Assembly: GCA_963692915.1 (NCBI GenBank)
Contig: OY843584.1
Coordinates: 192,001 to 256,000 of the forward strand
DNA: 64,000 nt
From: Cenarchaeum sp.
GTDB taxonomy: Archaea; Thermoproteota; Nitrososphaeria; Nitrososphaerales; Nitrosopumilaceae
Direction of reading: 5' to 3'
Under the pieces are notes generated by a model. It was not told where the DNA came from and did no database searches. It was given only the letters and a program-made list of their open reading frames with translations. A program made the position numbers and the translations under genes. Positions 9,928 through 30,014 of the stretch are shown one piece after another (the stretch's first letter is position 1; each line of letters starts with the position of its first letter).

Positions 9928-10352
9928 CGCCGCGCGCGCGTGGGGCACGTTTGTATAAAAGTGCTTGAGTTGTGTGTTGGGCATATGCCGCGCATCTGAC
10001 CCTATGAGTTGTAGATAGATTCGATATGCAGCATGGCAAGCATTATCTGCCTCATGTGGGCTACACTTACACCCCGCTCCTATCGTGGCATATCCGCACA
10101 CTGGAGATTTTGATGGCCGAGACCATGAATTGTTTATTTGTTCACACCAAACACCAGAAATAATCTCTATCTATATAGCTACATACTCCGCCCCCAATGC
10201 CGATCATGTAAATCATATACAACGTATGCGTGAAGCCAATGTGAGATTACATGTGTAGGTTGTTCACAACACTTGATGTCACTAACAGGACATAATAATC
10301 TAAGTTTAGTTTTGACGTTGCACACATAAATTCTCATCTTCAAACTGATATT

Positions 10353-11838
10353 TTACCTGATCTTCAACTCACGCAGGCGCGTAATTAGATACTCCATGGT
10401 CTTTTTTCCTTTTATTCTATTACAGCTGCTACACAACAACTGTAAATTTTCGTCATCATCGACCCCGCCTCTAGCTTTTGGTATTATGTGATCCACATCC
10501 ATGAGTCTGATCTCTGTCCATTTTTTGCAACCCTTGCATACTCCCTCTTGTCTACCATACAGGATACACTTAATGTCCCTAGAGCGTTTACCTACTCGTG
10601 TTGGAATATCTGTTCGGTGTATGATCTTATCAATGTATTTGGAAATGCCTATTTCTCGCTCCATTCTAATTTTCATCAAATCAGCTGCCTTTGATGACTT
10701 ATCAATTCCGATCCAGTTTCGTTTTAATTTTTCTGCAGCTGCACATGCTGTAGCACATCCACAAAAAGGATCAAGTACCAAATTGTCTGTGTCGGATGAT
10801 GCCTTTATTATGCATCAATAGTTCTAATGGTTTCTGTGTGGGATATCCAAGATCTTCGTTCCCTTTGACATTTCCAATATCTGCCCATATGTCGCCCATA
10901 TTTTCACCTTTGTATGAATCGAAATAAATCTTTCTTGTTAATTTTCGTTTAGAGATGGTTTTTTTAATAGTTTTCCCATTCGCTAATTTTTTCGTTATCT
11001 TTTTTTCAATTAAATCAATTGAAAAATTTCCCTTCTGGTATTCTTCTTCTAATCTGTCTTTAGACAGTCTCCAACCTGTCGGGTAGGGATTTTTAAATCC
11101 TCGCCATTCATAACACAAATTTGGTCTAGCGCCTTGCGATCGTGAACGAAATATGTGGGCTGAGTTGTCTTTCCAACGCCTACCATCTGAATCGACATTT
11201 GGGAATTCCTCTCTAATTTTTTCTTCCGTATCTAGATTGACTGTTATTTTTGGAATATTGAAAATAGACTTCCGAGAATTCTTTGCATAAAACAAAATGA
11301 CATCATGATTAGAGCCTAATTTTCTTGGTTTGTGTTGACTACCCTTGTTTCCTGTTGTTCGTTTCCAAACTATCTCATTTTTAAAATTTGTGCGTTTGAA
11401 TACGGCATCTAAAACACTTTTCAGATAATGGCTTATAGTTGGATCACAATGCAAGTAAATTGAACCGCTGTCTTTTAAAATTCTGCGCATTTCCAGTATT
11501 CTGACTGCCATGTAAATTAAATATGCTTTGACGCTTTTTCCTCCAACTATGCCAGATGATTTTAGTACTTCGTATAATCCTGCATTGTCGTGCTGAATCT
11601 CGCCCCACCATGCCTCATCAATATCCTTTAATGTCCAAACATCTGTAAATTCAGCACCTGTTGATTCTGTGCCTAATGGTGCCGCATAGTCATGATCTGA
11701 TTTAAACGGTGGATCGAGGTATATTAAATCAAACAATTCGTCGGGTAATCCTCGCATTATGTCTAGATTATCGCCGGTAAAAATGGTTCGATTTTTTAGG
11801 CTATTGCCCCCCCCCCCAACTAGATTACTGTTCTTCAA
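10353..11838 (-). pseudogene. Beta-class N6-A/N4-C DNA methyltransferase fused to C-terminal HNH nuclease, frameshifted near 10815
   Basis: GDNL, IYLDPPF (motif IV) and YPTQKPLELL lie in one frame; IIKASS..VLDPFCGCAT (motif I) and CKGC..DHIIPKARGG..NLQLLCSSCN (HNH) lie in the shifted frame. Confidence 0.82.
11807..11817 (-). repeat. G11 homopolymer tract in 5' coding region of the methyltransferase
   Basis: 11 consecutive C on the + strand, encoding GGGG in MKNSNLVGGGGNSLK. Confidence 0.9.
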
Positions 11839-12140
11839 TTGTCACAAAGGCCCCCTCGATACTGTGAAATGTCTTGTTGCAAGACTGGCGCAAATAAAAT
11901 TTAGGTTCTAAAATATGTAAAAAATTCATATTTGTGTTTTTATTGCTAATCAAATGCAGTGACCCGTGTACTTTGCCCATCTGTGTGGCACTCAGTCTCT
12001 ATATCTTGCTATATTAACATACTCTGTCTTATTAGCATGAGTTCGGCACTTCTCTGTTTATTGGGCCAAACGGGTGTGATCCTGTCGATATACTTACCTC
12101 GGCATGTCTGTCTGAGCACGAACGAGATGTGGTGCCACGC

Positions 12141-22724: not shown

Positions 22725-23092
22725 TCATGTCAACTAGGGAAGAGTTTGCAAGCAGCGCAAAATCAGGCAAGGTTCTTGCGTCAAAGTGTCCCAAGTGCGG
22801 CACGCTCCACCTCGCAATGTCGTTGTTCTGCTCAAAGTGCGGCGCTCGCGGGCTAGTGCCCGAAGAGGTTGATGGGCATGGGACAGTTGTGACATACACC
22901 ATAATCACCGTCGCCCCTGACGGATTTGAGGCTCATACGCCATACGCGTGGGTTGTCATGGCCATCGAAGGCACGAAACTGCGCGTCTCGGGGTTTATGG
23001 CTGCCATAGCCACGCCGGCAGACCTTCCGGTGGGGACGCGCGTGAAGATCGTTGGCCATGACGAGCGTGGCATTCTCATAGAGCGCAGCTAG
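22721..23092 (+). CDS. DUF35 Zn-ribbon/OB-fold thiolase partner
   Basis: CPKC..CSKC followed by OB fold; coupled to thiolase. Confidence 0.9.
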   Translation: MIMSTREEFASSAKSGKVLASKCPKCGTLHLAMSLFCSKCGARGLVPEEVDGHGTVVTYTIITVAPDGFEAHTPYAWVVMAIEGTKLRVSGFMAAIATPADLPVGTRVKIVGHDERGILIERS

Positions 23093-23163
23093 AAACAATT
23101 TACGCGCATACGCAACAAATTGCGATCCCACGGTTAATTACTTGCCACGTGTCGTGCCTGCCC

Positions 23164-23331
23164 ATGTCAGTGGACATTGTCTGCGGCGAGTGTGGCAAGC
23201 TCATACACAGGACGAGCATGCTAAAGCCCGTCAAGGAGGTTGTGACCAAAGAAATGGAAACTTGCGACCGGTGCGGCAGCATGCTCTCCACTAGCGAGTT
23301 CTCTGTTGACGCCCGCGAAATTGGCGAGTGA
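23164..23331 (+). CDS. Small zinc-ribbon protein
   Basis: MSVDIVCGECG...CDRCGSML; TTAATTA upstream. Confidence 0.75.
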   Translation: MSVDIVCGECGKLIHRTSMLKPVKEVVTKEMETCDRCGSMLSTSEFSVDAREIGE

Positions 23332-23628
23332 GCGCACGCGTGGGCGTCAGCGCACCCGTGCCCCACACACGGTTCCGTCATGGCCTGGGCGTGGGCGGCA
23401 CCACCGTGGAGATCGGCGTGCCTGACTCTGCTCTGTTCGGGATATGGTAGATTCCTGCTGCCCAGGGTCTCCCTGGCGCCTGCGCGTGTGACAGGGAACC
23501 ACAGTGTGGTCATGGCGCAAAACGCCGCCTGGCATGGGTGAGTCAGGCCCGGCGATGCGCGCATGCGACACGGGAGGGCGGCGGCTCCCCATGGGCGCAG
23601 CTGAAAAACCTGCAGGTCGGTGTGGCGT

Positions 23629-23681
23629 CACATGCGATCTAGATCGCATGTGGTGCGATGATCCTGCGATCTAGATCGCAG
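23629..23681. promoter_or_regulatory. Two perfect palindromes sharing the core TGCGATCTAGATCGCA (candidate operators)
   Basis: CACATGCGATCTAGATCGCATGTG (23629-23652) and CTGCGATCTAGATCGCAG (23664-23681); centres 32 bp apart. Confidence 0.55.
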
Positions 23682-23883
23682 CGATGCCTCCTCGGGTCAG
23701 ATACGTGGCCGCACTAGGCCATTTCCATGCCATAAACATTCCACGTTAATGCAAAATATGGCGCAAACTCTGAAAAATGTGGTTAACAGTGTCCAAATTG
23801 TGCCGACGCTGATCGGTGGATGCTAAAAACTGCGATCACGAGAGCGCTCCGGGCACACTGCACAAGTTTTATCTACAAGCCTT

Positions 23884-25983
23884 ATGCCTGCGGTGCGCAT
23901 GGCCATGGAGGAACCAAATGAGCCGCGCCGTGACGGCCTAGAGCGATCTACATCGCGCAGGGTTCGCATGATATTTTCGGTCATGGCTAGCCCAAATCGC
24001 ATAGACATCCTCCGAATACTCAACTCAAAGGGGCCGCTCACCTACTCGGAGCTAAAGTCGCTAGCCGGATTCAAGTCAAAAAAGGAGAGCGGCAAGTTCG
24101 CCTACCACCTGCGCAAGCTCCTCAAGCAGGCACTCGTGACGCTCAACAAGTCCGAGAAGCGCTATACCATAACCAACCTTGGCAAGCTCGTCCTGAGCCT
24201 TGCCCGCCAGATCGAGGAGCGCTCGATCATCGAGAGCGGCAAGATGTACGTGCGCACGTCGCACGAGTCCATCGAAGAGTTCAAGCCCTACAAGATAACG
24301 CAGTCGCTGACCCGCGAGGGTGGCCTCCCGCCAGAGCTTGCCCAAAAGATCACCGAGGAGGTAGAGAACCGCATCTACAAGTACCAGACGACATACCTGA
24401 CCGGCTCGCTCATACGCGAGATGGTCAACTCTGTCCTCCTAGAGCACGGCAATGAAGAGTACCGCAACAAGCTCGCGCGACTTGGTCTGCCCGTCTATGA
24501 CATAAACGAGATGCTCTCTAACGTGGTCAACGAAGACAATGGAGTCGAGGGTCTACTGTTCCGCACGGGTCAGGAAGTCTTCGCCGAACACCTCCTCACT
24601 AACATGCTCTCAAAGGATGTTGCTGACTCGCACCTTTCCGGTGACCTGCACATAACAAACCCCGGCGTCTGGTCAATGCTGCCTGACACGATATTTGTCA
24701 ACATCAAGGATCTCCTCGACGAGGGCATCGACTTGGGTGGCAAGCTTCCTGATGCGGCACGGCCAGGCGCGCCAAAGTCCGCCGAGGATTTGGGCGCGCT
24801 CCTATCAGTCGCGATATCGCTCCTCTCGCGCGAGGCCTCGCAGGAGCTTGTCATTGACGGCCTTGTGCCCATGATGACTAGGCACTCAAAGGAGGGCGTC
24901 GACCTTGAGAGGAGAATAGCTGACGCGCTAGTGACGTCATCTGTTGCGCCAAAGTACAACTCGCATCCAACGCTCGTCACAATTCGCGTTCCGCTAGGGC
25001 ATGACACAAAGACCGTCTCGACGATCCTTGCGGCATACCTGCGCTATGCGCGCCTCACACCAACGCCACGCGTTGGGATACTAATCGACAACTCGCGTGG
25101 CAAGGTGTCTGACGTGTCAGATGCAGTCTCTGAGATTGTCGCACTGGGCGGCCACGTTGCATTTTCAAAGGGTCTATCCTCGTGGGGCGGCATTGCAGTC
25201 GCGCCACACGAGACCAACGGGTCGCTCTCTGTCCACCTCGCCTCCGTCTCGCTAAACCTCCCGCGCCTCGCCCTAGAGTCAAACAAGGACGAGGTGTACT
25301 TTCGTGCGCGGCTTGCGCTGATAATGACACCTGTTCTCGAGTCCATGGCTCACCGTAAAAAGGCCATCTCTGACCTGACTAGGCGCGGTCTCAACCCGAT
25401 TCTGGCACGAAACACGCAATACATGCAAAAAATCTCCTTTTCGCTCGACGTGAACATCATAGGCCTGCGCGAGGCCGTCACTGACATACTCCAGTGCGGT
25501 GATCGCAGCGAAGCCGTCATGCAAAAGGTTCTCGAGACTACCCTTGACATCGCCTCCAAAAAGGGCAAGGAGACCGGAGATGACGTGCGCGTGAGCATGA
25601 TCGACAGCGACGCGAAGGCTCGCTTTGCGTCACTCGACGGCGCAAAGTACGGCAAGAACTCGCTCCTGAGCCTGCTCAACTCCGAGTCATACTCTGCAGG
25701 CGTCTCAGTCGCGGCAGCCGACCTGCCGGATCTAAAACCCAAGAGCGCCTCTGTCCTCGAGGCCGCACGCATGTCCGCAGCACTGGGGGGAAGCCTCCTC
25801 GTTTCAGTCAACCTGCCAGAGGGCTCCGAGCCGGCTGCGATCAAGTCGGCCGTCGAGTCGGCCGCCGGTCTCTATGGCGCGTTCCGCCCGTCGATGAGGG
25901 TGCGCACGTGCGGCGAGTGCGGCCACAAGGGCGTCGCGGCGGGATCAAAGTGCCCCAAGTGCAAGTCGCCCTGCGTCGTCTAG
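23884..25983 (+). CDS. ArsR-like wHTH + ATP-cone + degenerate class III RNR (NrdD-like) fusion
   Basis: ASPNRIDILRIL..LTYSEL..FAYHLRKL (wHTH); VRTSHESIEEF..KITQSL..IREMVN (ATP cone); SHLSGDLHI and SLNLPRLA (NrdD-like); terminal CGEC..CPKC with no following RxxGY loop. Confidence 0.85.
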   Translation: MPAVRMAMEEPNEPRRDGLERSTSRRVRMIFSVMASPNRIDILRILNSKGPLTYSELKSLAGFKSKKESGKFAYHLRKLLKQALVTLNKSEKRYTITNLGKLVLSLARQIEERSIIESGKMYVRTSHESIEEFKPYKITQSLTREGGLPPELAQKITEEVENRIYKYQTTYLTGSLIREMVNSVLLEHGNEEYRNKLARLGLPVYDINEMLSNVVNEDNGVEGLLFRTGQEVFAEHLLTNMLSKDVADSHLSGDLHITNPGVWSMLPDTIFVNIKDLLDEGIDLGGKLPDAARPGAPKSAEDLGALLSVAISLLSREASQELVIDGLVPMMTRHSKEGVDLERRIADALVTSSVAPKYNSHPTLVTIRVPLGHDTKTVSTILAAYLRYARLTPTPRVGILIDNSRGKVSDVSDAVSEIVALGGHVAFSKGLSSWGGIAVAPHETNGSLSVHLASVSLNLPRLALESNKDEVYFRARLALIMTPVLESMAHRKKAISDLTRRGLNPILARNTQYMQKISFSLDVNIIGLREAVTDILQCGDRSEAVMQKVLETTLDIASKKGKETGDDVRVSMIDSDAKARFASLDGAKYGKNSLLSLLNSESYSAGVSVAAADLPDLKPKSASVLEAARMSAALGGSLLVSVNLPEGSEPAAIKSAVESAAGLYGAFRPSMRVRTCGECGHKGVAAGSKCPKCKSPCVV

Positions 25984-26189
25984 GGCATCATCACAGGAGC
26001 TCCGATGCGCATTGGTGCGGATGTCGCACATGGAATTGCCATATTCGGCACTATTTTACCCCTTATCGAATGAATCCGTCATTTTTATCCGAATGCCGCA
26101 GGTCAATTTTCTCTCTAGTCCCGGTTGGTCCATGATCACAAGATAATCTTATAACCCGAGGGGTTTGACGCCCTGCCGGTCAGCTCATT

Positions 26190-28832
26190 TTGGACACAAC
26201 CCAGACCCAAACCCCGATCGAAGCGATCAGAAAACGCAACGGGGAGACGGCCACCTTTGATCGCACAAAGATCACCAACGCAATAGACAAGGCGTTCGCC
26301 GCAGTTGGCCGCAGCGATCCAGATGAGGCCGAGCGCCTGACTGAGAAGGTCATCAAAAAGCTCTACGTGCAGGGCTTCTCGGTCGCAAAACCTAGCGTGG
26401 AGGACATCCAGGACATGGTCGAGTCGACGCTCATCGAGAACGAGCACAGCACGGTGGCCAAGGCGTTCATACTGTACAGGCACGAGCGCCGCAAGGTTCG
26501 CGACGAAAAGATGCGCGTCCTCAACACAACATCACTGGATCCCGTGTCCTCGGACTTTGATGTCAACTCGCTAAGGGTTCTTGCGTCACGATACCTGCTG
26601 CGCAACAACCGCAGCGAGATAACCGAGTCGCCCTCGCAGATGTTCAGGCGCGTCGCCGTGCTCGTGAGCGTAGCCGATGTCTTGCATGACCCACGAATCT
26701 TTGAGCGCGACGGCAGGCACACGCAGAGCGTGGACGAGGCAGAGTCGTACATATCAAAGCTTGACAGCTTTGACCAAAAATTCCGCATAGGCGAGGATTA
26801 TCTCAACAAGTGGCACTTTAGGGCGCTCATAAAACACTATATCGCGCTTGCGCGCACGGGCTCGATGAAGATAGGCTTCAAGGATCTCCTGACGATGCTC
26901 GCGAGCAAAAAGTTCGACTCGTGCGCATCAAAGATTGACGAGTACTATGAGCTCATGGTGTCGCAGGACTTTTTGCCAAACTCTCCGACCATGATGAACG
27001 CCGGATGCAGACTCGGCCAGCTCTCAGCATGCTTTGTGCTTGACATGCCCGACAACATGGAGGGGATCATGAAGTCGACGGCTGATGCGGCACTCATATT
27101 CCAGTCCGGCGGCGGTGTCGGCATCAACTATTCGCGCCTTAGACAGGAGGGCGACATTGTCGCATCGACGTCCGGCGTGGCATCAGGCCCCGTCTCTTTC
27201 ATGAACATCATAAACACGGTGACCGAGGTGGTAAAGCAGGGTGGAAAGCGCAGGGGCGCCAACATGGGCATAATGGAGTCGTGGCATCCGGACGTTGAAA
27301 AGTTCGTGACAAACAAGACAAAGCCCGGCGTCCTTGAGAACTTTAACGTGAGCGTCGGGATTTGGGCCGACTTTTGGAAGGCCCTCGTGGGTGGCGGCGA
27401 CTCAAAGTATGTCCTGCGCAGTCCCCGTGACAGGTCTCCTGTGGGGGAGATCAGCGCGCAGCACCTCCTAGACTCGATCGCACAGTCAGCATGGAAGAGC
27501 GCCGAGCCGGGCCTCATATTCTTTGATCAGATAAACAAGCACAACGTCTTTGCCAAGGCCCGCGGCGAGCCGCTAAGGGCGACAAACCCGTGCGGTGAGC
27601 AGAGCCTCTACCCGTACGAGTCATGCAACCTCGGCTCGATAAACCTCGCCAACCTTGTCAAGCGTCGTGCTGACGGCGAGTATGACTTTGACTGGCAGCG
27701 CTACGAGGAGGCCATCCGCAAGACGACAAGGTTCCTCGACCACATCATCGACGTCAACCTCTACCCGATCACCGAGATCGACAAGGCCTCAAAGGACTCG
27801 CGCCGCATCGGCCTCGGTGTCATGGGCGTCGCAGACCTCCTCTACAAGCTGCGCATACCATACAACTCAAAGGAGGGCTATGACATGCAGTCAAAGCTAG
27901 CCGAGGCCCTGACGTACTATTCGATGGAGGAGAGTGTCGCGATAGCAAAGTCGCTTGGAGCATTCCCGCTGTGCTCAAAGACCGAGTATGCCGAAGGCAA
28001 GATACCTGTCGCCGCATACTATGAAAAGCCAAAGGAGCTCCACACGTACGACTGGGATGCGCTCATCGAAAAGATAAAGGTTCATGGCATACGCAACGTG
28101 CTCACGACGACTGTGGCGCCGACGGGCACGCTCTCGATGATAGCACAGTGCTCCAACGGCATGGAGCCAATGTTTGCGCTCGTCTTTGAAAAGCGCGTCA
28201 CAGTCGGCAAGTTCCTCTACGCAAACAAGGTTCTCGAGGGAGTCTTGCGCGAGAACGGCATGTACTCTGATGAGACGCTCGCGGCCGTGGCGTCCAACTA
28301 TGGCTCGATGCGCGGTCTTGACTCGGTTCCCGAGTGGATGCAGAACGTGTTTGTGACCGCAATGGACATACACTGGTCTGACCATCTCCTCGCGCAGGCC
28401 GTCTGGCAGCAGTGGATAGGCAACGCGATCGCAAAGACGATAAACATGCCGTATGACGTGACCGTGGATGACGTAAAGGCCGCGTACCTCCTGGCGCACG
28501 AGCTCGGCCTAAAGGGCATCACGATATACCGTGACGGCTCGCGCCACACGCAGGTTCTCCACATGACTGACGAGGGCGCCGAGAAAAAGTTCGACGTGCG
28601 CCCAAGCGAGTTTGTCACCGAGTTCGTCTCTGCGAACATAAAGAACGCGTACGTGCGCGAGCAGGTCGACAAGGCACTAGAGCTGCGCGCACCCTCCGAG
28701 CGCGCCCTCGAGACGGCTCCAACAGAGGTGCCCGAGGAGTCGCTCTGCCCGACGTGCAAGAACACGCTCGTCTTTGCCGAGGGCTGCAACATCTGCATAG
28801 AGTGCGGCTTTAGCGGCTGCACGTCCGGCTAG
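26190..28832 (+). CDS. nrdJ: Adenosylcobalamin-dependent class II ribonucleotide reductase with ATP cone
   Basis: IRKRNG ATP cone, PNSPTMMN, LSACF, QGGKRRGANM, TNPCGEQ, ESCNLGSINL, APTGT, C-terminal Cys pairs. Confidence 0.95.
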   Translation: MDTTQTQTPIEAIRKRNGETATFDRTKITNAIDKAFAAVGRSDPDEAERLTEKVIKKLYVQGFSVAKPSVEDIQDMVESTLIENEHSTVAKAFILYRHERRKVRDEKMRVLNTTSLDPVSSDFDVNSLRVLASRYLLRNNRSEITESPSQMFRRVAVLVSVADVLHDPRIFERDGRHTQSVDEAESYISKLDSFDQKFRIGEDYLNKWHFRALIKHYIALARTGSMKIGFKDLLTMLASKKFDSCASKIDEYYELMVSQDFLPNSPTMMNAGCRLGQLSACFVLDMPDNMEGIMKSTADAALIFQSGGGVGINYSRLRQEGDIVASTSGVASGPVSFMNIINTVTEVVKQGGKRRGANMGIMESWHPDVEKFVTNKTKPGVLENFNVSVGIWADFWKALVGGGDSKYVLRSPRDRSPVGEISAQHLLDSIAQSAWKSAEPGLIFFDQINKHNVFAKARGEPLRATNPCGEQSLYPYESCNLGSINLANLVKRRADGEYDFDWQRYEEAIRKTTRFLDHIIDVNLYPITEIDKASKDSRRIGLGVMGVADLLYKLRIPYNSKEGYDMQSKLAEALTYYSMEESVAIAKSLGAFPLCSKTEYAEGKIPVAAYYEKPKELHTYDWDALIEKIKVHGIRNVLTTTVAPTGTLSMIAQCSNGMEPMFALVFEKRVTVGKFLYANKVLEGVLRENGMYSDETLAAVASNYGSMRGLDSVPEWMQNVFVTAMDIHWSDHLLAQAVWQQWIGNAIAKTINMPYDVTVDDVKAAYLLAHELGLKGITIYRDGSRHTQVLHMTDEGAEKKFDVRPSEFVTEFVSANIKNAYVREQVDKALELRAPSERALETAPTEVPEESLCPTCKNTLVFAEGCNICIECGFSGCTSG

Positions 28833-28895
28833 GCCGCGCGTGGCCCACACCCAATCGCAGCGTTTTTACAAGTATGCTGATCGCCCCGTGCGCAC

Positions 28896-30014
28896 ATGAG
28901 GACAGCCACGCTCGTCGTCGCCCTTGCAGTCTCGGCGGCCACGCTTGCGGCAGGAATTGCGTTCATCCTGGCTCCAGGCATGTCCACAGACGACGAGCCT
29001 ATCGCCGGCCAGGGCACGCCAGCAGACATGGCGCTGCCGGACAACTTTGGCGTCATCGTCAACACGCCGGGTCGCGAGGCGAGCATACTGGAGCTCAACT
29101 CGCTCTATGCCAAGGTCGCCGGCCTGGGAGCCACGCGCAGCAACGTGTACGTGTTCTGGAACGCCCTTGAGCCCTCGCCGCGCGAGTACGCCTGGGCCCA
29201 GACGGATGCGATCATGACGATGCACGAAAGGCACGACCTTGCGGCGACACTCTTCTTTTCGCTAGTCAACGGGCGCACGCTCGGGCCGCTGCCCGACTGG
29301 ATGGGGCACCCGACGCTTGATGCCATACCGCCCGATGACGTCTCATCGGCGATCGGCGCAATCCTTGCGAGATATCCGAGAATCGACACCGTCGTCATGG
29401 CCGGCGAGGCTGACTCGCACTTTGAGCGGTATCCGGGCATGCTCGATGCGTACAATGACCTCTTTGAGGATGTTCGCGACGACCTTGCCGCCGAGCACCC
29501 CGACGTCATGGTGGGAAACGCCATCTCCCTTGACCGCATCATCAACCGCGGCAATGAGCGGATCGTCTCGGATCTTGCAGCGGGGGACTTTGTCGCCTTT
29601 ACGTACCGGCCGCTAAACCTGCTCAACGAGGTCTCGCGCACGCCACAGGATGCCATCGGCGACATGGAGACGATGCTTCGCATCACCGGCGGCCAGCGCG
29701 TCGCGCTGCTTGAGGCTGGATGGAGCTCGTCTGCGGACATTGGCGGGGATCCCGCAAGCCAGGCCGAGTTTGCCGTCGCGCTCTCCGAGCTCGCATCTTC
29801 AGAGCCCCGCCTCGAGTTCGTCACGTGGTACCGGCTCCATGACAGGCCAGACGGGTCGTGCACAGTCGGCCCGCTCGATGATGACACCTCGCTGCTGAGC
29901 ACCGACGGGGGCACGTACGCCGCATCAGGCCTTGGGAGCTATATCTGCGGCGCCGGCCTCCTTGACGTTGATGGTGCGCCAAAGCCGGCATGGGGCGCAC
30001 TTGGCGGCCGCTGA
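28896..30014 (+). CDS. Membrane-anchored/secreted glycoside hydrolase-like TIM-barrel protein
   Basis: N-terminal TM, FWNALEP..Y.W, AGEAD, LLEAGW, GLLDVDGAPKPAW resemble clan GH-A. Confidence 0.6.
   Translation: MRTATLVVALAVSAATLAAGIAFILAPGMSTDDEPIAGQGTPADMALPDNFGVIVNTPGREASILELNSLYAKVAGLGATRSNVYVFWNALEPSPREYAWAQTDAIMTMHERHDLAATLFFSLVNGRTLGPLPDWMGHPTLDAIPPDDVSSAIGAILARYPRIDTVVMAGEADSHFERYPGMLDAYNDLFEDVRDDLAAEHPDVMVGNAISLDRIINRGNERIVSDLAAGDFVAFTYRPLNLLNEVSRTPQDAIGDMETMLRITGGQRVALLEAGWSSSADIGGDPASQAEFAVALSELASSEPRLEFVTWYRLHDRPDGSCTVGPLDDDTSLLSTDGGTYAASGLGSYICGAGLLDVDGAPKPAWGALGGR

Follow-up and report, generated by a model that had tools for sequence, protein, structure and literature searches.

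A winged-helix protein built on an apparently inactive class III ribonucleotide reductase is a candidate regulator of ribonucleotide reductase genes in ammonia-oxidizing archaea

NrdR is a bacterial ATP-cone repressor of ribonucleotide reductase (RNR) genes. To our knowledge, how archaea control the transcription of these genes is not understood. In a 64,000-nt stretch of the genome of Cenarchaeum sp. (contig OY843584.1, positions 192,001-256,000; hereafter the window, in whose numbering all positions are given), we analyzed a gene that joins a winged helix-turn-helix (wHTH) and an ATP-cone to a barrel resembling that of the class III RNR NrdD, and that lies upstream of nrdJ, which encodes a class II RNR with B12 as its cofactor. 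The source genome is a single contig of 1.64 Mb and is 99.86% complete. For the P. copri NrdD, the accessible portion of PMC11226230 names the working parts as Cys416, Cys171, Gly711-Tyr712, Glu581 and the NxN flap.

The open reading frame (ORF) at 23884..25983 on the forward strand encodes 699 aa, and the database protein P0001 has 694 aa, counted from the ATG at 23899. Since this ATG gives P0001 and sits ~23 nt past a TATA-like box (23864-23876), it is probably the true start, and the short distance from the box to the ATG indicates that the transcript is probably leaderless. Pfam placed a wHTH at aa 30-104 (HTH_20, 32.9 bits, cut-off 27; DUF7347, 41.6 bits, cut-off 27.6), an ATP-cone at aa 121-193 (36.5 bits, cut-off 25.8; 40 bits in a genome-wide scan) and a match to NRDD (PF13597, 73.7 bits, cut-off 26.2). 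HTH_20 passes its cut-off and the metalloregulator subfamily NF033788 does not (24.2 bits, cut-off 55), so the N-terminal fold is ArsR-like and, by score, no metalloregulator. The protein carries the NrdD-like motifs SHLSGDLHI and SLNLPRLA and a CxxC..CxxC ribbon, and its score against the NrdD equivalog model TIGR02487 is 61.6 bits, below the cut-off of 326.35.

A profile of 90 family members matched class III RNR structures in the PDB (9d3x, 1.9e-41; 8p23, 1.1e-38; 4coi, 8.9e-33; 1h78, 2.1e-31). The AlphaFold2 model made from the same 90-member alignment had a mean predicted local distance difference test score (pLDDT) of 86.5 and a pTM of 0.76, and its top Foldseek matches in the PDB were all class III RNRs (9d3x, E 1e-18; 4col, TMt 0.62; the T4 structure 1h7a, TMt 0.64, root-mean-square deviation 5.0). 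With its barrel, its zinc ribbon and a significant profile match, the protein is a member of the NrdD superfamily by homology and by fold. Modeled as two copies, the barrel alone (aa 205-694) gave a predicted symmetric homodimer with helices 295-312 and 335-353 at the interface; three runs shared at least 94% of the contacts, the partner pLDDT was at least 84, and the ipSAE was 0.84 (best control, 0.00), a value reached by 20/30 proteins solved as one-chain pairs and by 1/23 solved as single chains. Because NrdD dimers have already been solved, this result may reflect likeness to them only.

To the window protein, 9 other short relatives and 19 long relatives (29 family members) we aligned 9 true NrdDs from Thermoproteota genomes. 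The glycyl motif SR[VI][VT]GY follows the ribbon in 9/9 true archaeal NrdDs and in 0/29 family members. The short forms, including the window protein, end just past the zinc ribbon without an RxxGY loop; the long forms retain a tail in which K, R, T, N, S or A stands in place of the glycine, or which is truncated. The first-strand cysteine is present in 9/9 true NrdDs and in 0/29 family members (T269 in the window protein). The finger-loop cysteine is missing from 10/10 short and 17/19 long forms; the window protein reads SWGGIAVA there and has no cysteine between aa ~395 and N458. The NxN flap (ENAN) was found in all 8 true NrdDs that cover the region and TPAE in 9/9, each in 0/29 family members. 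No NrdG was detected in the whole genome with TIGR02495 (best 51.2 bits, cut-off 131.15) or TIGR02491 (best 29.5 bits, cut-off 126.1), the best radical S-adenosylmethionine match being a QueE-like protein.

With both the glycyl loop and the activase absent, the protein is expected to be inactive as an RNR. The conclusion that it is dead as a ribonucleotide reductase is strongly supported by sequence, every NrdD catalytic feature that was tested being absent. The initial annotation had read a wHTH, an ATP-cone, NrdD motifs and a terminal ribbon here, and Pfam and the sequence agree with it. It had also called the protein a dead class III RNR, citing the missing RxxGY loop (the protein ends 6 residues past C693), the missing finger-loop cysteine and the lack of nrdG in the window; these losses hold, the last now for the whole genome, and the first-strand cysteine, the NxN flap, the TPAE glutamate and the activase join them. 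The comparison with class III enzymes that it had proposed gave structure or profile matches to T4 and Thermotoga NrdD, and the Gly loop and the cysteine are lost. Domain architecture, fold and loss of the catalytic residues are thus established for this protein.

Selection on the family is uneven. Between the window protein and those of other Nitrosopumilaceae, identity is 94% in the winged helix, 88% in the ATP-cone and 62%, 43% and 54% in three successive parts of the barrel. Conservation among the 90 members, with a position scored as conserved at 85% or more, is given by region in the table; the conserved winged-helix positions include G70, F72, Y74, H75 and L76 of the putative recognition helix. 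In an enzyme the opposite pattern would be expected, and the strongest constraint appears to lie where a regulator would need it.

The gene downstream encodes NrdJ (TIGR02504, 712.7 bits, cut-off 399.95; ATP-cone, 82.7 bits) and begins ~200 nt past the regulator gene. Among Nitrosopumilaceae, nrdJ lies downstream on the same strand at ~180-570 nt in 29/29 testable loci, the 30th locus ending at a contig edge, and the same order occurs in 3 Cenarchaeum loci; the synteny with nrdJ that had been put forward as a check therefore holds in this family. For other Nitrososphaeria we considered 27 loci from nine families. An RNR gene is adjacent in 16 of them: nrdJ downstream on the same strand in 9, a class II RNR with a TSCPD domain in the same arrangement in 2, an adjacent convergent nrdJ in 4 and a convergent nrdJ 1.2 kb away in 1. 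One further locus of the 27 is cut by a contig end. For the long forms, we took 12 of 15 near- or sub-threshold TIGR02487 matches from other Thermoproteota (G340, G403 and G354 excluded); 4 directly precede a true nrdD in the same orientation, and 1 precedes a class II RNR gene. The neighbor is thus whichever reductase the lineage uses, nrdD or nrdJ, which is hard to explain without a functional tie. In 2 of the 4 loci with nrdD, a small glutaredoxin gene lies between the pseudo-NrdD gene and the true nrdD (L085:6233-6559, L088:6052-6357), which we take to fit the glutaredoxin-dependent subtype of class III RNR. In 7/26 extended loci (L086, L090, L091, L092, L095, L103, L110), pyrB and/or pyrI adjoin the gene, mostly in convergent orientation; these aspartate carbamoyltransferase neighbors hint at a nucleotide-metabolism gene neighborhood. 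A NUDIX gene lies upstream of the regulator in two f12 loci.

The family is widespread. At E <= 1e-3, it matched in 290/301 sampled Nitrososphaeria genomes (three of them unpublished: G265, G213 and G114), in 274/278 high-quality genomes and in 191/191 Nitrosopumilaceae; 4 of the 290 matches were weak (G011, G027, G031 and G043; E 1e-6 to 1e-11), those in G011, G027 and G043 covering the N-terminal part only. Conservation this near to universal indicates that the gene is functional. A search of 1.8 billion cluster representatives returned 1053 clusters at E <= 1e-3 and 156 at E <= 1e-30. Database labels for the family are "anaerobic ribonucleoside-triphosphate reductase," "helix-turn-helix domain-containing protein" and "ArsR family transcriptional regulator," in keeping with the initial annotation's prediction of homologs in other ammonia-oxidizing archaea under an enzyme name. 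One long form that carries the wHTH and lacks the glycine (G498, contig C4, L096:4631-6922; tail GRSSAQYTP) scores 329.9 bits against TIGR02487, over the cut-off, so that automatic annotation would label it a genuine anaerobic reductase.

In the databases, the nearest relatives of the long form P0163 are ~740-800 aa long and, where NCBI gives names, these are of Bathyarchaeia. Compared along the full length, the long forms share 31-35% identity with the true NrdD T086. In an unrooted maximum-likelihood tree of 44 barrels from a quick search, a branch with SH-aLRT 99 separated the 15 true enzymes from the rest, the 10 short forms made up a clade (100) and the long forms lay between the two. Such a topology is consistent with an archaeal NrdD having been duplicated once, one copy then being joined to a winged helix, losing its chemistry and later becoming shorter in Nitrososphaeria, although the order of these events is only inferred from a tree of that kind. 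Evolutionary intermediates survive in Bathyarchaeia, with the glycyl loop kept and its glycine replaced. Phyletic spread, gene order and constraint pattern are established by these surveys. What the protein does with DNA is a matter of prediction: from sequence we infer its DNA binding, its operator, its ligand and the sign of the regulation.

Table. Features of the regulator locus and conservation by protein region (positions conserved in at least 85% of 90 family members)
Feature	Positions	Strand	Conserved positions	Remarks
55-aa C4 zinc-ribbon ORF	23164..23331	+		directly upstream of the regulator; only sub-threshold zinc-ribbon Pfam matches
24-nt perfect palindrome	23629..23652	.		CACATGCGATCT joined to AGATCGCATGTG; from repeat search; holds the first TGCGATCTAGATCGCA copy (23633-23648)
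Second exact 16-nt palindrome	23665..23680	.		TGCGATCTAGATCGCA; 32 nt from the first; candidate operator
Two promoter-proximal GATC sites	23811..23837	.		CTGATCGG, CTGCGATCAC; upstream of the TATA-like box
TATA-like element	23864..23876	+		AAGTTTTATCTAC; aligns with AAGTCTTATTTAC in 28 Nitrosopumilaceae loci
Coding sequence, wHTH/ATP-cone/pseudo-NrdD	23899..25983	+		ORF opens at 23884; likely start 23899
Winged helix-turn-helix, aa 30-110	23971..24213	+	13/81	HTH_20, DUF7347; putative recognition helix SGKFAYHLRKL
ATP-cone, aa 118-195	24235..24468	+	29/78	VRTS replaces canonical KRDG
NrdD-like alpha/beta barrel, aa 205-670	24496..25893	+		radical and substrate-binding residues gone
Middle of barrel			0/115	
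C-terminal part of barrel			13/215	
C4 zinc ribbon C676, C679, C690, C693	25909..25962	+		followed by the protein end where NrdD runs into the glycyl-radical loop
Spacer before nrdJ	25984..26189	+		T-runs after the regulator gene; conserved block CCGCAGGTCAATTTT (alignment of 31 spacers)
Conserved block in this spacer	26102-26110			GTCAATTTT
Spacer GATC	26134-26137			single site
TATA-like element for nrdJ	26148-26157			TCTTATAACC
nrdJ, B12-dependent class II RNR	26190..28832	+		own canonical ATP-cone; sole RNR in the genome

We then considered the DNA to which such a regulator might bind. Both copies of TGCGATCTAGATCGCA lie ~200-250 nt upstream of the gene. Their core 12-mer CGATCTAGATCG occurs twice in the 1.64-Mb genome, both times at this promoter, and the second palindrome copy is kept in a 97%-identical relative (L010/L006). 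The 250-nt upstream stretch holds 7 GATC; the genome has 25 such places, this one included. In 28 other Nitrosopumilaceae loci, the interval bounded by the stop codon of the preceding small gene and the TATA box contains 129 GATC in 3380 nt (38.2/kb; each locus above 10.6/kb), compared with 108 in 7080 nt of the spacer before nrdJ (15.3/kb, 27 loci) and 3.0/kb in the regulator coding sequence. Adjacent GATC pairs are 10-12 nt apart in 43/146 cases, a count whose interval enters the coding sequence in some genomes and whose related genomes are not independent. As a control, we used 120 kb at arbitrary coordinates in three genomes; its non-ORF DNA has 3.3 GATC/kb, and 41/42 of its intergenic segments are at or below 10.6/kb. 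The outlier, at 44.9/kb, is a spacer from which the RFC small subunit gene and a GINS-MCM-Hel308 row diverge (L118:11786-11963, G070). Across 30 Nitrosopumilaceae genomes (L122-L151 among the loci), this spacer contains 164 GATC in 4214 nt (38.9/kb), and blocks of GATCAATTGATC and AATTGATCGATC are conserved in it.

In the complete genome G070 (2.77 GATC/kb), 26 places have at least 4 GATC in 150 nt, and the two richest, with 8 each, are the RFC-GINS spacer and the region of the regulator gene, where 4 of the 8 fall in an acidic N-terminal coding extension. Other sites in this genome that are rich in GATC or contain GATC-W4-GATC flank unrelated genes or genes of unknown function, among them those for EF-2, glutamate dehydrogenase, an MT-A70 methylase, a tubulin/FtsZ-like protein and a 1206-aa protein without a Pfam family. 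The arrays at the regulator gene, the nrdJ spacer and the RFC-GINS spacer hint at a wider DNA-synthesis regulon, and they may instead be read by another factor or a methylation system. Two sequence markers for such a regulon were discarded. The pair pattern TGATC-N5-7-TGATC, searched in five genomes, was barely above its reversed-pattern control (19 versus 14 in G070), and the 8-mer CTGCGATC, with 195 copies in the window's own genome, gave 16 small clusters, mostly at repeated genes, and no clear regulon. A replication origin was likewise set aside as the meaning of the GATC and palindrome cluster: GC-skew extremes lie at ~640-656 kb and 1.43-1.46 Mb in the window's genome, with the gene at 216 kb, and at ~1 kb and 773 kb in G070, with arrays at 212 kb and 1,486 kb. 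A scan of 31 window ORFs (10.3-40.2 kb) detected no Cdc6/Orc1 domain, and no Rfam family reached its threshold in 23000-29000.

The ligand would be read by the ATP-cone, of which the genome has only two, that of the window protein and that of NrdJ. ATP-cones starting with VRTS, VRRTDG or VRGTDG are common to the long forms and to true NrdDs such as T086. Since the variant is present in this intact neighboring NrdD, we argue that it is a working allosteric domain; binding of ATP or dATP by the variant cone is a prediction. The specificity-site residues by which T. maritima NrdD reads its effector are Gln161 and Gln218 according to the accessible part of PMC4493059; they are not conserved even among the aligned true archaeal NrdDs, and mapping them onto the family gave no correspondence. 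At the former specificity site in the dimer interface, the barrel might still bind a nucleotide.

With moderate confidence, we propose that the protein is a dimeric pseudoenzyme transcription factor whose ATP-cones would sense ATP versus dATP and gate the binding of the winged helix at its own promoter and that of the adjacent reductase gene. An ancestral class III RNR of the Bathyarchaeia/Nitrososphaeria lineage would have been duplicated, and one NrdD copy would have gained an N-terminal ArsR-like winged helix and lost the radical chemistry and the substrate-binding parts, keeping the ATP-cone, the zinc ribbon and the barrel as a dimerization scaffold. The dimer would read the adenine nucleotide state through its ATP-cones, and this reading would shift its conformation or oligomeric state; it would then bind or release operators at its own promoter and at the neighboring RNR promoter (nrdJ here, nrdD in anaerobic relatives). 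RNR supply would in this way be matched to the demand for deoxyribonucleoside triphosphates (dNTPs), which is the job of NrdR in bacteria, done with other parts. The initial annotation had already proposed a transcription factor that senses nucleotides and controls nrdJ. Gene order, the switch of neighbor between nrdD and nrdJ and the constraint gradient fit that proposal; the distant loci that lack an RNR gene and the non-canonical ATP-cone do not.

Several observations weigh against the proposed regulator. There is no RNR gene near it in 10/27 distant Nitrososphaeria loci, 9 of them examined over ~5-7 kb on each side and the tenth (G049) seen on a 2.4-kb stretch only, nor within about 5-7 kb in 7/12 long-form loci. 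The ATP-cone lacks the canonical Lys-Arg of KRDG (R124-T125 in the window protein), and ligand-dead ATP-cones exist, such as the second cone of P. aeruginosa NrdA as described in the accessible text of 10.1101/2022.04.23.489257. Loss of the finger-loop cysteine alone is no proof of inactivity, because T. maritima NrdD is active with Ile359 at the loop tip, as stated in the part of PMC4493059 open to us. The operators are candidates only. GATC arrays were absent upstream of the gene in 25 non-Nitrosopumilaceae loci, including those of Bathyarchaeia, and such confinement to Nitrosopumilaceae is odd given that the putative recognition helix is conserved across all groups. In the window's own genome, moreover, the nrdJ spacer has a single GATC and the RFC-GINS spacer has none.

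That the relic reductase is a master switch of a DNA-synthesis regulon in ammonia-oxidizing archaea, with its own gene, nrdJ, RFC, GINS, MCM and Hel308 co-regulated through helically phased arrays of GATC boxes and the dNTP state read by the ATP-cones and perhaps the specificity site, is a speculative extension of the proposal that we regard as rather unlikely; if true, it would couple precursor supply to replication and the cell cycle. A DNA-binding regulator with mainly non-RNR targets in nucleotide metabolism or the cell cycle, its adjacency to RNR genes being left over from the duplication, would account for the distant loci without an RNR gene, the pyrB/pyrI and NUDIX neighbors and the position of the two densest arrays of G070. 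However, the neighbor changed from nrdD to nrdJ with adjacency kept, which a historical leftover does not explain, and we think this alternative unlikely.

The protein could also act on an RNR at the protein level, as an inactive paralog that associates with the active reductase, or with the system supplying its reductant, and tunes activity or assembly; the winged helix would then make protein contacts or tether the protein to the nucleoid. It is a close, full-length paralog of the true NrdD encoded alongside it in Bathyarchaeia, and the NrdD-like dimer interface is predicted to be kept, subject to the likeness noted above; together these make heterodimers with NrdD conceivable. Yet the family is present in all sampled Nitrosopumilaceae, whereas a TIGR02487 search of 37 of them detected no true NrdD; the only RNR of the window's genome is of class II, and the most constrained region is the wHTH with its putative recognition helix, which points to nucleic-acid binding. 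We consider such a partner role improbable. Finally, positions shared with NrdD persist in at least 85% of the 90 members (H250, G253, N458-L-P460-R461, G527, E530, D585, Y603 and G636-G637), as they might in a protein that is still an enzyme and carries out non-radical nucleotide chemistry in the old barrel. None of 115 mid-barrel positions reaches that level, however, identity there falls as low as 43% within one family, and neither the substrate flap nor the TPAE glutamate nor either cysteine remains; continued enzymatic activity of this kind has very little credence. We therefore retain the dimeric, nucleotide-reading transcription factor as the favored explanation.

Some features of the surrounding DNA are recorded here in their own right. 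The C terminus of NrdJ (28770-28832) is likewise a Cys-rich CxxC...CxxC ribbon, CPTCKNTLVFAEGCNICIECGFSGC. In Nitrosopumilaceae (L011-L038), the regulator is immediately preceded by an ORF whose C terminus resembles that of the small upstream gene (CxxC...STSEFSLDV) and whose stop codon overlaps the first GATC box. In loci of genus g3 (L017, L020, L023 and others), the regulator has an acidic N-terminal extension of D/E-L-D repeats whose codons GATCTAGAT add GATC. The MT-A70-family adenine methyltransferase gene of G070 (L202:6715-7632) has four GATC in a direct repeat just upstream. Outside the window, an intergenic stretch rich in GATC and TGCGATC (G000:C1:1401905-1402260) lies upstream of two ORFs whose N termini, as judged by eye, resemble cobalamin-synthesis precorrin methyltransferases. 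B12 is what NrdJ uses as cofactor, but GATC is frequent in this genome, which is GC-rich. Positions 10001-12000 form a low-GC island (38%, against ~62% around it) in which an N6/N4 DNA methylase is apparently split over two overlapping ORFs on the minus strand (10353-10781 and 10771-11838), the second with an HNH nuclease domain; the island is probably a remnant of a mobile restriction-modification system.

A literature search, with subscription journals outside its coverage, found no description of a wHTH/ATP-cone/pseudo-NrdD family, and the accessible parts of two broad RNR phylogeny papers mention neither Thaumarchaeota nor Nitrosopumilus, and neither a helix-turn-helix fusion nor a non-catalytic form. 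Nearly all sampled genomes of these nitrifiers, which are abundant worldwide, carry this candidate RNR regulator. Its database label as an anaerobic enzyme is a mislabel that could lead metabolic reconstructions to infer anaerobic DNA synthesis in ammonia oxidizers. If the proposal is right, the protein would show clearly how the scaffold of an enzyme can be reused as a transcription factor that senses a ligand, and if the link to the GATC arrays holds, it would offer a route into replication and cell-cycle control in Nitrososphaeria.

Compared with known systems, the window protein is clearly homologous to NrdD and descends from an archaeal NrdD clade. With the described enzymes (1h7a, T4; 4coi, T. 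maritima; 8p23, P. copri; 9d3x, S. thermophilus) it shares the ATP-cone, which is N-terminal in NrdD, the ten-stranded alpha/beta barrel, the C4 zinc ribbon and probably the dimer. It differs in lacking the glycyl loop, the radical cysteines, the NxN flap, the TPAE glutamate and an activase in the genome, in its additional N-terminal winged helix and in its occurrence in obligate aerobes. The long relatives without the glycine, the closest of which bear Bathyarchaeia names, are annotated as anaerobic RNRs. They have the same wHTH, ATP-cone and barrel and have likewise lost the first-strand cysteine, the flap and TPAE; unlike the window protein, they retain a C-terminal tail that is homologous to the loop of the true enzymes, with the glycine replaced (e.g., SRSLAKYLP), 2/19 keep the finger-loop cysteine, and some directly precede a true nrdD.

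The resemblance to NrdR, which PMC12051234 in its accessible portion describes as a bacterial regulator of RNR genes, is one of parts and context: a DNA-binding module joined to an ATP-cone, an RNR gene nearby and a proposed reading of ATP and dATP. NrdR, however, consists of an N-terminal zinc ribbon and an ATP-cone in ~150 aa, whereas the window protein, at 694-699 aa, is about four times larger and combines a wHTH with a whole dead enzyme. It is archaeal, has no defined operator resembling the NrdR box and is homologous to NrdR in the ATP-cone only; it may work like NrdR without being a member of the NrdR family. The kind of regulation proposed here is thus known from NrdR, and what appears to be new is an archaeal ATP-cone candidate regulator of RNR genes made from a recycled reductase and a winged helix.

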